Below are positions 50,857-55,853 of a DNA stretch of 64,000 nt, one piece after another. The notes under the pieces were generated by a model that worked only from the letters and a program-made list of their open reading frames with translations, had not been told where the DNA came from and did not search any database. The position numbers and the translations under genes were made by a program. This DNA comes from Candidatus Omnitrophota bacterium. Its GTDB lineage: Bacteria; Omnitrophota; Gorgyraeia; Gygaellales; Profunditerraquicolaceae. The stretch is from NCBI GenBank assembly GCA_041653115.1, contig JBAZGA010000003.1, positions 1,832 through 65,831 on the forward strand, given 5' to 3'. How positions within the stretch are numbered: position 1 is the stretch's first letter; every line of letters starts with the position of its first letter.

Positions 50857-52287
50857 TTAAACGAACTTGTAACGCGAAAAAAGCTGGCGGCTCCGGTATT
50901 TCAGAAAAGGGTGCTTCTTTAAAGATTTTTTTAAAAAAATGACCGGTTTCTCGCTTTTTAGCCCCGCCCTGCCCGCTATCCATGGCCTATATCCAGCTCC
51001 TTCCAATCTGTTTATTATCCCGCGGGCAGGCTTTTCATCGGCCGCTATAATTATTGCCCCGTTCGTGCAGGAAGTATTGTTAGGCAAATTTAATCCGGAA
51101 GACTCATCCGTATGTAATTGTATCTCATCGAGATGAATATTGGTCTTGCTGCGGAAAGCCATATCTTCAAAAGCCGATATTCCTTCTCCGGATATATCCT
51201 TTGTGGCGGTAATATGCCTCTTTCGATCGAAGTTGCTTCCTTTTAACGGCAAATAATCCGATATAATTTTTGCCGCTTCTATATTAGGCGTAGCCATTTT
51301 GCCAAGCACATCCAGCTTGACTCTTCTGATATCGGCGGATAACTCCGTATTTACCTGCCTGATTATATACAATACGAGTGCGGCTAAATCTCCGATAGGC
51401 CGCGTCACGATTAATAATTGCCCCGGCAGGAGATTGGAGATACGCGGAGGTTCTTTTTCAAAAAAACCTACTACGGTACTGCCAATAATTTCCAGGCCTA
51501 ATCCGAGAGGGCCGGAGTCGACAAGGCTATAATTGTATTTCTTAAATTTAGATAAATAGCTCGCGAGAGATTTTTTTATCAGCCGGTTATCATTCTCGTA
51601 GATACTATCATATACAGGATAGAGCATAATATCCCTGTACACGCCGAGAGCATACAAGTCATTGAGGGCGTTATTAAGAGAGATGTATATATTTAGCCAG
51701 CTTGAATGCTTTAAATTAAAATCAACCGTTACTATCGCATCGTTACTGGCGGCTCCATAATAATTACCTTTTCTTGAAATTAAATAATCGGCTAAGATAA
51801 ACTTTTGTCCGGGTATTTTTGAAATTTCAAGAGAGTGGCCTTTACCGATAGAAAAGGGAGTCCTTCCTCCTGAAACAGCTTTATAAAAACCGTACAAAGA
51901 ATCAATAATTTCATTACGGGAGGCGGGATTTATATAAGAAGCAAGGATGATGGCGCTGGCCGGCTTGAATTTCCTGATGGCCTCCCTGACTTTTTGCCTT
52001 CCCCTGCCTTTGAATGAAAAGAGCGGATAAAGCCGCCTCTTGAGCCCGATTTTCCTGTTGCTTTCAAAAATATAGGCGTCGTTTCCTAATTCTATCTTGA
52101 TATTCGTATCGCATAGTTTTCTTTTAACTCTCTTCAGGGCGGGATAAAGCAGGCTCCTTAAGGGCACCTTGGCAGCACAACCAAGGCAAAATATGTTGCG
52201 CGGCGTCTTTTCGCTTTTAGAAATAGAATGTTTAACGCGGGATCTCAGCGGCCGGTTCCCCCACTTTATCAAAATAGAATTTGGCAT
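50857..52287 (-). CDS. Hypothetical protein, a possible PurM/SelD-like (AIR-synthase-related) ATP-binding fold
   Basis: 476 aa. N-terminal CLGCAAK (compare the SelD GCGCK motif). A later DISGEGI resembling the PurM-like DxTGxG. The start is uncertain because it overlaps the upstream ORF by 56 nt. Confidence 0.3.
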   Translation of the reverse strand: MPNSILIKWGNRPLRSRVKHSISKSEKTPRNIFCLGCAAKVPLRSLLYPALKRVKRKLCDTNIKIELGNDAYIFESNRKIGLKRRLYPLFSFKGRGRQKVREAIRKFKPASAIILASYINPASRNEIIDSLYGFYKAVSGGRTPFSIGKGHSLEISKIPGQKFILADYLISRKGNYYGAASNDAIVTVDFNLKHSSWLNIYISLNNALNDLYALGVYRDIMLYPVYDSIYENDNRLIKKSLASYLSKFKKYNYSLVDSGPLGLGLEIIGSTVVGFFEKEPPRISNLLPGQLLIVTRPIGDLAALVLYIIRQVNTELSADIRRVKLDVLGKMATPNIEAAKIISDYLPLKGSNFDRKRHITATKDISGEGISAFEDMAFRSKTNIHLDEIQLHTDESSGLNLPNNTSCTNGAIIIAADEKPARGIINRLEGAGYRPWIAGRAGLKSEKPVIFLKKSLKKHPFLKYRSRQLFSRYKFV

Positions 52288-53692
52288 CTTTATATTGCTT
52301 CTTCACCAGATACGCCAGCCCTAAAAGATAATAATCCTCTTCATCAAGGGTTTGCTCACGGCTGTTTCTTAATATTTTTTCCTGAGTACTAAGATAAGAT
52401 AATAATTCCAATGGCATTATATCTTCCGGGTGTTCGGCAATAAATCTTATTGCGCTCTTTTTATCGCCTTCATTCATGCGGCGGATTTTTGCGATATAAA
52501 GGCTAACGGCTAATTTTTCATGTATGCTTGCTGCCTTGCTCCTGATGCTCTTTAACTCTGCGACTACGCGGTTAAAATCGGTTTGCTCTTCAGAGATGAC
52601 AACTTTAAAAAGAAGCATATTCCAGGCTTTATCCGAACAAACTACTTCAAGGTTATTCTGCCGGCTGTTTTTATGAGAATTTATTTTTTCTAACCAGAAG
52701 GCTTTTTCAGAAATATCGTTTTTAAGGCGCTGCAAGACATCTTTTGAAAAATCGCTGCTTATCCCTTCTCGGGGAGGCTGAAAGGCCTGCCCTTTTTCAC
52801 TATTTAATTCCCGGTAAAACTTCCTAAAATCATCTCTTAAATTTTTTTTCCTTTGCCGAAACGCCTCCATAACCATAGAATAACCTTCGGCGGGAGAAAT
52901 CTCTCCGCCATTGTCGTTTTCCTGAGCCATAGGCTCGAATATCTCCGTGAATAGATTATCGTCAAAGTTTTGTATGTGGTCTATTAATTCAAACGTTTTG
53001 AAAAAATCGGCGTTTATTTTTCCCTCTGCATAAGATGCCCAAAGCTTATCATAATAAGGGGGATTCTTATAAAATACGGCGCTTTTTCTAGACAGGGGAG
53101 CTGCTTCGTTAATATGCTTAAAAGAAAGGTCTTTGTCTATGCCGATTAACTTCCCGCTTTTAGGAAGCAACAAAAAGTTGGAGTCCTTGGCATCAAAATT
53201 ATATATCAGCCAGTCCAATACCTGCTGCTTCTGTAATTCCTCTATCTGCCCGCTAGTTAATTCTTGTGGCGGTATATTGCTTAAAGTCCGCGCGTGAGGC
53301 AGGAGTATCTGCACGTAACCGCCGACTGCTTCTCCGTTAATCGGTAAACGGACAGGGTAGACTTCATTGCAATTCACTCCGAATAATTTCGCCAAAGAAG
53401 AAACTATCACCACCCTGTCTATTATTGCGTTATCGCTAAACTTAAACAGCCAGAGATTCCCGTCGCTGCCTTTTAAAATTATTTTTTGCTTACTCCCTCC
53501 CAGGTGGGACTGTTCTCTTTGCAGCTCATAGCTGATGTTACTAATTGCCTCTTTATTTAATTGCTGGGCTGTATTATATAATGCGGCTATTTCTTCATTG
53601 ATGGTTATTGCATATGTTCTTAGGGCGGGCGGGAAGATGCAGCATAGACAGAGAAAAGTTATCCTTAATAAAATCGGCAGATGCCGGCTCAT
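52232..53692 (-). CDS. Secreted protein with a PI3K/PI4K/HipA-like putative kinase core and a C-terminal TPR-like helix pair
   Basis: 486 aa. Signal peptide (cleavage around TYA). WLFKF (Lys), a catalytic-loop-like IYNFDAKDSNFLL, and GIDKDLSF (DFG-like). Confidence 0.3.
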   Translation of the reverse strand: MSRHLPILLRITFLCLCCIFPPALRTYAITINEEIAALYNTAQQLNKEAISNISYELQREQSHLGGSKQKIILKGSDGNLWLFKFSDNAIIDRVVIVSSLAKLFGVNCNEVYPVRLPINGEAVGGYVQILLPHARTLSNIPPQELTSGQIEELQKQQVLDWLIYNFDAKDSNFLLLPKSGKLIGIDKDLSFKHINEAAPLSRKSAVFYKNPPYYDKLWASYAEGKINADFFKTFELIDHIQNFDDNLFTEIFEPMAQENDNGGEISPAEGYSMVMEAFRQRKKNLRDDFRKFYRELNSEKGQAFQPPREGISSDFSKDVLQRLKNDISEKAFWLEKINSHKNSRQNNLEVVCSDKAWNMLLFKVVISEEQTDFNRVVAELKSIRSKAASIHEKLAVSLYIAKIRRMNEGDKKSAIRFIAEHPEDIMPLELLSYLSTQEKILRNSREQTLDEEDYYLLGLAYLVKKQYKDAKFYFDKVGEPAAEIPR

Positions 53693-54138
53693 ATCCTTCT
53701 AAAGATATTATCTAACGCTGCCAGGCCCGGAGAAACGATAAATTTATAAAATGCCGTAACTATGGGGTGCGGGCTGTTTAAGGTATAGTTAATTTTATCG
53801 CTCCTGATTACCTCTATTACTTTACCGATAGCATATTCAGAAGATATCTTGGAAAGAAGATAATCATTATCGCCTTTGTGAAAGAAATATAACCGGCCCC
53901 CGCTCCTGAATTTTCCTATGACCCTATGCGTAAAAAGCCTGCCCGAAGAAAAAGTAATCACATCGCCTATCTTTATCTCTTCCGGTTTTACGGGGGCGAT
54001 CTTCACCTTCCAGCCTTCCTGAAGCGTAGGAAGCATGCTCTTTCCGATAACAGTAAGCACCCCGCCTTTCTGCCGAAGATAAAACCCATACCCCTCATTT
54101 TCGATGCTTTTTACCGCCCTGATAGTATTGGTTCCCAT
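53689..54138 (-). CDS. S26/S24-family serine peptidase (signal-peptidase-I-like)
   Basis: 149 aa. GKSMLPTLQEG matches the SPase I box B (GxSMxPTL). The catalytic Lys region is plausible. Confidence 0.55.
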   Translation of the reverse strand: MGTNTIRAVKSIENEGYGFYLRQKGGVLTVIGKSMLPTLQEGWKVKIAPVKPEEIKIGDVITFSSGRLFTHRVIGKFRSGGRLYFFHKGDNDYLLSKISSEYAIGKVIEVIRSDKINYTLNSPHPIVTAFYKFIVSPGLAALDNIFRRI

Positions 54139-54893: not shown

Positions 54894-54902
54894 TTTCGCA
54901 GC

Positions 54903-55853
54903 TTATTCTTTATGATAATCAAAGCCGTATACTATTTTATGCATTTGCCTGACCACTTCATAATTTTCGTCCCGGGCCCGGACGAAACCGGTGAAATATG
55001 GCTCGACGCTGGTCAATATTTTTCTATAGCCGGGGTGATCATAATCCAACCGAAGAATGGCGTTCACGATTTTTTCTGCTAAACGGGGGTCAAAATCCTT
55101 ATTGACACAAATCATATACTCCGGAAAAGCTGCGGAGATCTTTATAAATTTCAGGCCTTTGTTTTTAAAGCGGTGGGCGATGGCTTCCTTGACAGCTCCG
55201 GCGTCAAATCTCTTATTTATTATTGCCATAGCCACATCAGGGTCGGTTCCCAGGCAGGCATGCTCTCTCAGCTCTTCCAGCCGGATACCGGCATCAGCCA
55301 GCATTGCCCTGGGGATGAGCCAGGTTGATTCGGATAACCGGTGCCCAAAGGCAAAACTCCTTCCTCTGATATCTTCAATCTTATCAATATCGCTGTCTTT
55401 ACAGGCGGCAATTATACACTTATAAGTCGGAGAGCCGGCATTTAACGCTGCCAAAATCGGTCTTACCCCGTATTTAAAATGCCCCTGGATATAAACCGAG
55501 GGGCTAACATAGGCAATATCAATGGTGCCCCTGCCAAGCTCTTCTATAATTTTATTCTCTTCTAATACCTGCCTAATGTTTATCGGCATGCCTATCTCTT
55601 CTGCCAGGTAATCCGCGAGCGGCTTAAACCTCTTCTCCATCAGCTTTTCGCTGATATACCAGTCTGTCTGAATGCCGAAATTTAAGCCTGGCGCCCTGCG
55701 GGAGATAATTATCGCGAGGAGCATCAATCCGCAGACTAAGAATATAATTACCCCTAAGATTATCGGCCTTAATGATGCTCCGCAACGAAGACCCCTCTCA
55801 GGCATAAATCTGCTCGGGTAAACAGCGCCGCATGCTGGCGACGGTAAAGGCAT
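54903..55853 (-). CDS. PhnD/SsuA-like periplasmic substrate-binding protein (orphan)
   Basis: 316 aa. N-terminal TM/signal anchor. PhnD-like fold (IDIAYVSPSVY). No ABC permease or ATPase genes are nearby. Confidence 0.6.
   Translation of the reverse strand: MPLPSPACGAVYPSRFMPERGLRCGASLRPIILGVIIFLVCGLMLLAIIISRRAPGLNFGIQTDWYISEKLMEKRFKPLADYLAEEIGMPINIRQVLEENKIIEELGRGTIDIAYVSPSVYIQGHFKYGVRPILAALNAGSPTYKCIIAACKDSDIDKIEDIRGRSFAFGHRLSESTWLIPRAMLADAGIRLEELREHACLGTDPDVAMAIINKRFDAGAVKEAIAHRFKNKGLKFIKISAAFPEYMICVNKDFDPRLAEKIVNAILRLDYDHPGYRKILTSVEPYFTGFVRARDENYEVVRQMHKIVYGFDYHKE

Follow-up and report, generated by a model that had tools for sequence, protein, structure and literature searches.

A 64,000-nt stretch of DNA from a Candidatus Omnitrophota bacterium (contig JBAZGA010000003.1), referred to here as the window, carries a 5-kb tail of five closely packed genes downstream of a gene for a radical S-adenosylmethionine (rSAM) enzyme with a SPASM domain. 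While a preliminary description of this region, made from the sequence alone, proposed that all of these genes form one export and modification pathway for a small molecule or peptide, their co-occurrence across genomes splits the region into separate sets. We consider it moderately probable that the tail is a mosaic of three parts, namely a cassette of the type that produces ribosomally synthesized and post-translationally modified peptides (RiPPs), two genes inserted into this cassette, and an independently conserved trio of genes. The cassette would span from a gene encoding an HprK/ScmC-like P-loop protein to the gene encoding an S26 family peptidase, and the genes for a PhnD-fold binding protein and a UPF0280 protein would have been inserted into it in this genome only. 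The trio encodes a kinase-like protein, a SelD-related protein and an EamA transporter. The family guesses made previously for the five tail genes were largely right according to hidden Markov model and fold evidence. We infer all of the chemistry proposed below from the observed gene content, families and folds, conserved residues and co-occurrence.

The set formed by the HprK-like, PqqD, rSAM, precursor and S26 genes was found to recur in five independent metagenome loci. These were among the loci (L058-L068 in our numbering) obtained in a metagenome scan with the rSAM protein, which yielded full-length relatives with 34-39% identity. Searches of the rSAM-relative loci with all window proteins did not identify homologues of the binding protein, the UPF0280 protein, the kinase-like protein, the SelD-related protein or the EamA transporter. 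The rSAM protein matches PF04055 (E 7e-23) and PF13186, the SPASM family (E 1e-9), and it has the motif CNLKCTHC and a Cys-rich C-terminal SPASM region, as required of an rSAM/SPASM enzyme; compared with all named maturases in NCBIfam, it scored below every cut-off. The PqqD protein (PF05402, E 1.7e-13), which qualifies as a RiPP recognition element (RRE), is encoded by a gene that is kept beside the rSAM gene in related loci, and homologues of the HprK-like gene adjoin the orthologous rSAM gene in L060-L063, L066, L067 and L069. The HprK-like protein carries a Walker A motif (GPSGSGKST) and shows weak matches to HprK_rel_B, ScmC and HprK_rel_A, all far below the cut-offs; a precomputed annotation lists a match to Pfam family PF27840 (ScmC), and no match was found in PHROGs. 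A richer version of the cassette, with two rSAM/SPASM genes and two S26 paralogues, is present in L061-L063. In L063 (12-4439), for example, the gene order is rSAM, precursor, HprK-like, S26, PqqD, rSAM and S26, and the L061-L063 cassette adjoins an ABC-2 exporter pair and a polysaccharide-export (Wza-like) gene.

The precursor gene of this set had been missed in the window. The 86-nt length reported for the spacer between the rSAM gene and the gene for the binding protein was confirmed, but the spacer is not empty, as it holds a 51-codon open reading frame (ORF) encoding MKNNKTEKRLKAKKKKKWETPFVIVEDCDTLSKDAFTVASMRRCLPEQIYA. This ORF, which was also called as a gene by an independent annotation, shares its first 14 nt with the 3' end of the rSAM gene, and a Shine-Dalgarno sequence, GGAGG, is located 9 nt upstream of its start codon (ATG). 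The encoded peptide has a Lys-rich N-terminus, followed by the motif [YW]-[ET]-[KT]-P-x-[VI] and a Cys-containing core, and a small ORF of the same type lies beside the rSAM gene in L058, L060, L061-63, L066 and L067, representing five independent related loci. Among small ORFs, the pattern matches one of 466 in the window and 12 of 12,779 (approx. 0.1%) in about 1.5 Mb of unrelated loci, where none of the matches resembles these peptides. An alignment of six precursor peptides showed that K16, P21 and two Cys residues are invariant. Directly ahead of the first Cys, most of the related precursors also contain an A-x-A-like motif, LAA/LAV, which resembles a signal peptidase site. No match to the curated precursor families of NCBIfam was found, and tblastn with the L063 precursor returned only noise; the common leader motif came from the pattern search. 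Short length, a position next to the rSAM gene, a conserved leader and Cys residues in the core make the 51-aa ORF a candidate precursor gene of the rSAM/PqqD cassette. To our knowledge, no substrates have been identified for the curated cassettes that combine ScmC/HprK-like, PqqD and rSAM/SPASM proteins, and this precursor family could provide a concrete, testable substrate for one branch of them.

The S26 protein passes the model for archaeal-type signal peptidase I (TIGR02228; 54.6 vs. a cut-off of 51.85), and its motifs KSMLP, THRV and KGDND align with the catalytic Ser, His and Asp of human SEC11A/C; a search of PHROGs gave no match. One or two S26-type homologues, which likewise match TIGR02228, flank the orthologous rSAM gene in L058, L061-64, L066 and L067. 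The earlier suggestion of a leader peptidase thus gained support, since S26 homologues lie beside orthologous rSAM, PqqD and HprK-like genes in four of the five independent loci, and because of this recurrence the S26 gene belongs to the rSAM cassette. While the protein shares its family model and catalytic motifs with the SipW/Sec11 (S26B) group, it differs from this group in being only 149 aa long and in having no N-terminal transmembrane anchor, as a Kyte-Doolittle scan found no hydrophobic segment. The tie to the rSAM/PqqD cassette and the missing anchor suggest a leader peptidase that works in the cytoplasm, as opposed to a signal peptidase of the secretory type, and S26 is the probable leader peptidase of the cassette. 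A cytoplasmic Sec11/SipW-type enzyme in this position would be an unusual choice for a RiPP system.

Comparison with known systems places the cassette near, and outside, two of them. It shares a core of HprK/ScmC-like P-loop protein, PqqD protein and rSAM/SPASM enzyme with the SynChlorMet (ScmC/D/E/F) and GeoRSP systems, two types of peptide-maturation system defined by NCBIfam/TIGRFAM to whose models it shows weak though specific matches, and the two rSAM/SPASM genes found in L061-L063 parallel those of SynChlorMet. By contrast, the window has a single rSAM gene, and its cassette is accompanied by the Sec11/SipW-type S26 peptidase and by a family of precursors whose Lys-rich leader contains [YW]E[KT]P. 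The HprK-like protein reached 23.5 bits against a cut-off of 125 for the ScmC equivalog TIGR04249, indicating homology at the family level only. Scores for the remaining SynChlorMet models were similarly low (28 bits vs. 100 for ScmD, 103 vs. 400 for ScmE and 82 vs. 400 for ScmF), as were those for the GeoRSP PqqD protein (TIGR04302, 28.5 bits vs. 100) and the GeoRSP rSAM enzyme (TIGR04303, 87.5 vs. 400). A literature search on SynChlorMet, GeoRSP or an HprK-related kinase together with PqqD and radical SAM/SPASM proteins returned nothing relevant. Judged by these matches, the cassette is predicted to function like SynChlorMet/GeoRSP-type systems and is not a member of them. The use of an rSAM/SPASM enzyme and a PqqD-type RRE on a short Cys-containing precursor also recalls sactipeptide and ranthipeptide maturases (AlbA, PapB and StsB); the window rSAM protein shows partial matches to the AlbA and StsB models, and its relative in L063 also matches PapB. 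However, no cut-off of these models was reached, the RRE of the window cassette is a separate protein, and neither an HprK-like partner nor an S26 leader peptidase is standard in these classes.

Taken together, these features suggest a pathway in which the PqqD protein would bind the Lys-rich WETP leader of the precursor and the rSAM/SPASM enzyme would cross-link the Cys residues of its core, with thioether-type chemistry being deemed most likely. The HprK/ScmC-like P-loop protein would carry out an ATP-dependent step, and the anchorless S26 peptidase would cut off the leader in the cytoplasm. The region adds a new combination of precursor and peptidase to the ScmC-type cassettes, in addition to an undescribed trio built around an unnamed family of secreted kinases.

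Two genes separate the precursor gene from the S26 gene. The first encodes a binding protein of the Phosphonate-bd family (PF12974, E 4e-55), which reaches only the broad subfamily TIGR01098 (112.1 vs. 112.05) and stays well below the cut-off of the PhnD equivalog TIGR03431 (99 bits vs. 261). Three start codons are possible for this protein (M1 at 55853, M17 at 55805 and M44 at 55724), and the independent annotation uses M44, yielding a protein of 273 aa. A hydrophobic anchor is present if translation starts at M1 or M17; a start at M44 would remove this membrane anchor and make the protein cytoplasmic. The earlier statement that the binding protein has no transporter partner was borne out, as no protein with the motif pair of an ATP-binding cassette (ABC) ATPase (Walker A and LSGGQ) was found in the 64-kb window, and the protein is therefore an orphan. 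No homologue of it was present in any of the related loci that were fetched.

The second of these genes encodes a UPF0280 protein, corresponding to COG2122 (ApbE-like), which scored 266.3 bits (E 2e-79) against NF003323, 5 bits short of the equivalog cut-off of 271. The preliminary description associated this family mostly with methanogenic archaea. A scan of species-representative genomes contradicted this association by identifying relatives with 35-55% identity in 48 other bacterial species, including Desulfobacterota, Clostridia, Acetobacterium, Moorella, Planctomycetia, Spirochaetota, Bacteroidales and Omnitrophota, and the use of UPF0280 as an archaeal or methanogen marker was rejected. 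The co-occurrence of UPF0280 with PqqD and HprK-like genes, which had been put forward as a check, was not observed either, as none of the 48 loci contained another cluster gene within 10 kb of the UPF0280 gene. The most common neighbor was HcyBio/DUF39 (PF01837), present in 17 of the 48 loci and in most of these directly upstream. Among the members of COG2122 are M. acetivorans MA1715 and D. vulgaris DvMF_0044, of which the latter, along with DUF39 and NIL/ferredoxin proteins, has been shown to be genetically required for homocysteine synthesis from sulfide (PMC5764234). The near-threshold match and the position of relatives directly downstream of HcyBio/DUF39 fit this published role in homocysteine and sulfide metabolism; the window copy differs in that it is located between the RiPP precursor and binding protein genes on one side and the S26 gene on the other, with no HcyBio gene found within the 64 kb. 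Because the genes for the binding protein and UPF0280 are absent from the related loci, they look like local insertions between the precursor and S26 genes, and they are most likely passengers rather than components of the cassette.

The genes that follow S26 show a conservation pattern of their own. The EamA protein, which contains PF00892 twice, has a weaker match to TPT and is predicted to have approx. 8-10 transmembrane segments, has orthologues (E 1e-59 to 1e-130) that follow a kinase-like gene, a SelD-related gene or both in five loci (L002, L003, L004, L006 and L138). Both close homologues of the kinase-like gene (L002 and L003) are directly followed by an orthologous EamA gene, as are the closest homologues of the SelD-related gene. 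The full order of kinase-like, SelD-related and EamA genes was found in L004/L005, where the kinase-like protein is 26% identical to that of the window (E 1e-27), and L006/L007 carry the SelD-related and EamA genes. The Omnitrophica locus L138 has the SelD-related and EamA genes along with two genes of the kinase-like family, one convergent and the other partial. In L002, from another Omnitrophota metagenome-assembled genome, the kinase-like and EamA genes are followed, after a gap of 485 nt, by a canonical, Cys-type selD (12977-14047; TIGR00476, 290 bits; motif TQGCASK), and no Sec machinery was in view at this locus. None of the examined loci with kinase-like and SelD-related genes contains the rSAM cassette with its PqqD and S26 genes, UPF0280 or the binding protein. 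The best-supported reading of these neighborhoods is that the kinase-like, SelD or SelD-related, and EamA genes form a separately conserved and previously undescribed Omnitrophota trio. The metallophosphoesterase gene that comes next in the window encodes a purple-acid-phosphatase-like protein (PF00149 and PF16656) with an N-terminal hydrophobic segment, and it is only possibly tied to the trio, as no homologue was found in the related loci. In L003, a PstS-like phosphate-binding gene is located after EamA; a phosphate theme near the trio is possible, although this arrangement is not conserved elsewhere.

The kinase-like protein has no Pfam family, its closest match being PI3_PI4_kinase (PF00454) with 17 bits against a gathering threshold of 27.1 (E 0.006), and no family in Pfam or PHROGs covers its core. 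A word-indexed search identified only two homologues, both from Omnitrophota, and an additional search with a profile of 39 kinase-like sequences returned the same three proteins only; an exhaustive profile search, by comparison, revealed a family of at least 1234 cluster representatives. Two architectures occur in this family. Short members of approx. 430-500 aa resemble the window protein, in which the kinase core (approx. residues 55-310) is followed by a helical C-terminal domain, and some of them are extended to approx. 700 aa by tetratricopeptide repeats; in the other architecture, the core (positions approx. 65-310) is embedded in giant proteins of 1,000-7,700 aa. An N-terminal signal-like segment was found in 36 of 39 short-form relatives. 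The family motifs are G-G-x3-K, W-L-F-K, V-L-D-W-L-x-x-N-H-D-x-H-x-x-N-F and G-I-D-K-x-Q-A-F. In the window protein, a catalytic loop, D167-A-K-D-S-N172, is followed by I-D186-K-D, and K84 and D186 are nearly invariant (≥90%) in the family, with D167 and N172 also present in the window protein.

Structural comparison supports the earlier description of this protein as a signal-peptide-bearing kinase of the PI3K/PI4K/HipA type. An AlphaFold2 model based on a 70-sequence alignment reached a predicted local distance difference test (pLDDT) score of 91 and a predicted template modeling score of 0.89, while a 3-sequence alignment gave a pLDDT of 42. Foldseek searches of the PDB with this model returned kinase folds only, with a probability of 1.0 (CtkA, Vps34, MAPKs, CK2 and HipA/HipT), although TM-scores were low (≤0.45). 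A search of BFVD returned phage proteins with PI3K/PI4K domains and a 1340-aa polyvalent "ADP-ribosyltransferase" of Mycobacterium phage Onyinye (A0A6B9L6W7, E 1.5e-10). The weak matches of the family profile to PDB sequences (E 0.04-1) coincide in every case with the catalytic loops of FAM20A/B/C, Vps34, PI4KA and HipA. The elements that define a protein-kinase-like fold, i.e., a bilobal structure, the beta3 Lys, the catalytic Asp/Asn and the metal-binding Asp, are present, the residues being K84, D167, N172 and D186. The protein therefore shares this fold with Vps34, HipA/HipT, CtkA and FAM20, and resembles PI3K/PI4K-type kinases in the family loop N-H-D-x-H-x-x-N, represented by D-A-K-D-S-N in the window protein, after which I-D-K-D takes the position of DFG. 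A further similarity to CtkA and the FAM20 kinases is its predicted export. The protein is distinguished from known atypical kinases by sub-threshold sequence matches, its own helical C-terminal domain and its membership in a large unnamed family. These searches thus define an exported protein family with a PI3K/PI4K-like kinase fold, which comprises at least 1200 cluster representatives and whose core also occurs in giant and phage polyvalent proteins. Among its distant members, those in L143 and L145-L147 are accompanied by genes for PMT/PMT_2 (glycosyltransferase (GT)-C) proteins, DegT and class-III aminotransferases, LPG_synthase_TM and several rSAM or B12-rSAM enzymes, and other distant relatives adjoin GT2/GT4 genes. 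Clusters of PMT and kinase-like genes are reminiscent of eukaryotes, in which POMT mannosyltransferases are paired with POMK, a lumenal kinase.

The SelD-related protein passes NF038049, which describes a SelD-related putative sulfur metabolism protein (272.2 bits vs. 250, residues 33-452), and scores 22.2 bits against a cut-off of 125 for canonical SelD (TIGR00476). Its motif C34-L-G-C37-A-A-K40 contains the Cys-x-x-Lys of the active site; in 32 homologues, G36, C37 and K40 are invariant and C34 is nearly so, and D183, D189, N206, N209, D210, D227, D300 and D364 are invariant as well. While a phmmer search of the PDB with the single sequence found nothing, the family profile reaches the SelD structures 3fd5 and 9hjt (E 8e-7), with E values of 8e-7 for human SPS1 and 2e-3 for Aquifex SelD, in line with the SelD/PurM likeness noted earlier. 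This alignment spans residues 199-450 only, and the correspondence to the metal- and ATP-binding Asp residues and N87 of SelD is accordingly a predicted one. A JGI gene call of 436 aa was rejected since it removes the conserved CLGCAAK motif, which is covered by the homologues and NF038049; the shorter call is probably too short, and the 56-nt overlap with the upstream gene is therefore likely real.

A SelD-like family, for which synthesis of a thiophosphate compound was proposed, has been described computationally in Crenarchaeota and reported to be restricted to this group and absent from bacteria (Li et al. 2014, PMC4210487). Our homologue search found bacterial members beyond the window. 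The window protein agrees with this family ("SelD_rel_HyperS"; PMC4210487, NF038049) in its score, its Cys-x-x-Lys motif and the reach of its profile to SelD structures, and probably also in its conserved Asp and Asn residues. It differs in being, with other members, bacterial (from Omnitrophota), in having an insert of approx. 140 residues between C-x-x-K and the first conserved Asp, and in its partners, which are EamA and a secreted kinase-like protein here and SirA/TusA, Prx-like or acylphosphatase proteins elsewhere. In L008 (1-10649) and L139 (1-11086), which represent a clade with approx. 40% identity, the SelD-related gene is followed by genes for PALP (cysteine-synthase-like) and TusA, and is located just downstream of giant ORFs (8,370 and 12,189 aa) that extend beyond the edge of the locus.

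Based on these families, the cytoplasmic SelD-related enzyme may use ATP to activate a small nucleophile, which by analogy with SelD would be sulfide or selenide, yielding a thio- or selenophosphate-like product. The EamA transporter, a member of the drug/metabolite transporter (DMT) superfamily, could carry a small anionic metabolite across the inner membrane, and the Sec-exported PI3K/PI4K-like protein would be an extracytoplasmic enzyme whose target is probably a glycan, lipid or protein of the envelope. In Omnitrophota, one kinase-like subfamily is associated with SelD or SelD-like proteins and a specific DMT transporter; if functional, this association would point to a SelD-type pathway that is new and to phosphorylation taking place outside the cytoplasm. 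A more specific proposal, which we consider rather improbable, is that the trio represents a new trait of SelD-type sulfur or selenium use, in which a thio- or selenophosphate-type donor is made in the cytoplasm, exported by the DMT/TPT-like transporter and used by the secreted kinase for the modification of glycans, lipids or proteins of the envelope. The kinase could use this donor or another exported phosphoryl donor, and the PhnD-fold binding protein, as a phosphite/phosphonate-type binder, and the secreted phosphoesterase could join such extracytoplasmic phospho-anion chemistry. If true, this would be a bacterial counterpart of the lumenal kinases of the secretory pathway.

The alternative to the mosaic is the integrated pathway proposed initially, in which all genes from the HprK-like to the SelD-related gene, possibly with EamA, would cooperate in the synthesis, modification, processing and export of one product, either a peptide or a small molecule. 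Such a pathway would agree with the tight or overlapping spacing over the whole stretch and with the lack of internal terminators, and plausible roles can be assigned to a peptidase, two ATP-using enzymes, a binding protein and a transporter. The reported arrangement of the five tail ORFs, on a shared strand with spacers of 86, 9, 2, -4 and -56 nt, was reproduced exactly in our ORF table. The shared orientation is nevertheless uninformative because the whole window is co-oriented; all credible ORFs (≥140 aa) are on the minus strand, and the few plus-strand ORFs overlap minus-strand genes. Moreover, rSAM loci lack the tail genes except S26, UPF0280 loci lack any other cluster gene, and loci with kinase-like and SelD-related genes lack the rSAM cassette. 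The preliminary description had stated that a failure of the genes to co-occur outside this genome would count against it; this failure was observed for most pairings, whereas the cassette set and the trio do co-occur. The co-occurrence data largely refute the integrated pathway, and we regard it as unlikely. In long runs of co-oriented and tightly packed genes, adjacency alone over-predicts function at the operon level.

Several observations weigh against the mosaic that we favor. The identity of the rSAM relatives is merely 34-39%, making their orthology probable rather than certain, and in the window precursor, which has no LAA motif, the leader motif lies much closer to the first Cys than in the related peptides. 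The trio rests on approx. six independent loci, all of them metagenomic, and a bacterial clade of SelD-related proteins with approx. 40% identity pairs with PALP and TusA instead. Distant kinase-like members occur in glycan clusters (PMT, DegT and rSAM) without EamA or SelD, and a periplasmic kinase would have no obvious supply of ATP. In addition, the spacers of 9, 2, -4 and -56 nt span the borders between the proposed parts, and a promoter and terminator scan of the region found no intergenic terminator and no convincing internal promoter. This spacing argues for co-transcription and translational coupling across the borders and leaves room for a functional link in this genome. The tail is probably co-transcribed as a whole, though it would not be one system.

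Two alternatives concern individual parts of the mosaic. The overlap of 4 nt between the S26 stop and the kinase-like start, the signal peptide of the kinase-like protein and the SipW/Sec11 type of the peptidase would all be expected if S26 were a signal peptidase dedicated to the kinase-like protein, similar to SipW, which serves TasA/TapA in its own operon. However, S26 lacks the N-terminal anchor that places the active sites of SipW/Sec11 outside the membrane, its homologues accompany the rSAM cassette in loci without a kinase-like gene, and the kinase-like genes of L002, L003, L004 and L138 have no S26 neighbor. This very improbable role was rejected on the basis of the missing anchor and the locus distribution. 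Likewise, the binding protein and UPF0280 could be accessory parts that the cassette recruited in this lineage and that are perhaps coupled to the SelD-related enzyme, with UPF0280 delivering sulfur and the binding protein binding the product or a phospho-anion cofactor. The location of both genes between the precursor and S26 genes, with spacers of 9 and 2 nt, the tie of UPF0280/COG2122 to sulfide handling, the thiophosphate compound proposed for the SelD-related family and the absence of the usual UPF0280 partner, HcyBio, from the window are consistent with such recruitment. On the other hand, none of the 48 UPF0280 loci has a SelD-related, rSAM-cassette or binding protein neighbor, no UPF0280 gene was found in the fetched loci around SelD-related genes (L004-L009 and L138-L140), and the missing HcyBio gene says little because UPF0280 is not beside HcyBio in 31 of the 48 loci. 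Recruitment therefore seems doubtful, and we prefer to regard both genes as passengers.

The features of the region are listed in Table 1. Tight packing continues past position 50857, with the EamA gene starting 10 nt after the SelD-related gene and the metallophosphoesterase gene following after another 28 nt. The promoter-like site upstream of the HprK-like gene was found by a consensus scan and is weak evidence for a promoter because comparable sites are just modestly enriched across the region.

Table 1. Coordinates of genes and other features in and around the 5-kb tail (positions in the window)
Feature	Position	Strand	Length	Remarks
Metallophosphoesterase gene	48749-49939	-	396 aa	
EamA/DMT transporter gene	49968-50846	-	292 aa	Beyond the region covered by the preliminary description
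SelD-related protein gene	50857-52287	-	476 aa	
Kinase-like protein gene	52232-53692	-	486 aa	
S26 peptidase gene	53689-54138	-	149 aa	
UPF0280 gene	54141-54893	-	250 aa	
PhnD-fold binding protein gene	54903-55853	-	316 aa	Length as longest ORF
Candidate precursor peptide ORF	55798-55953	-	51 aa	Inside the 86-nt spacer
Radical SAM/SPASM gene	55940-57031	-	363 aa	
PqqD-family gene	57043-57327	-	94 aa	
HprK/ScmC-like P-loop gene	57331-58158	-	275 aa	
Promoter-like site	58193-58220	-		TTGACT, 16 nt, TACTAT, with upstream TG; ksgA and the HprK-like gene are 70 nt apart here

Scans of the 64-kb window for tRNAs and Rfam families gave no match. The cassette is preceded by ksgA and pdxA, and the genes found downstream are rplU, obg, proB, proA, nadD, rpe, pgm, plsC, rpsA and tyrS; a glycan/O-antigen-type island comes after them. 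This lipopolysaccharide/O-antigen-type island (24518-38986) encodes a DegT aminotransferase, two GT9 heptosyltransferases, ManC, a Wzy_C ligase/polymerase, three GT2 proteins, a methyltransferase, a carbamoyltransferase and a flippase, in addition to a 686-aa protein (32908-34968) with no Pfam match. The GC content dips to 35-36% at 32-36 kb within this island.

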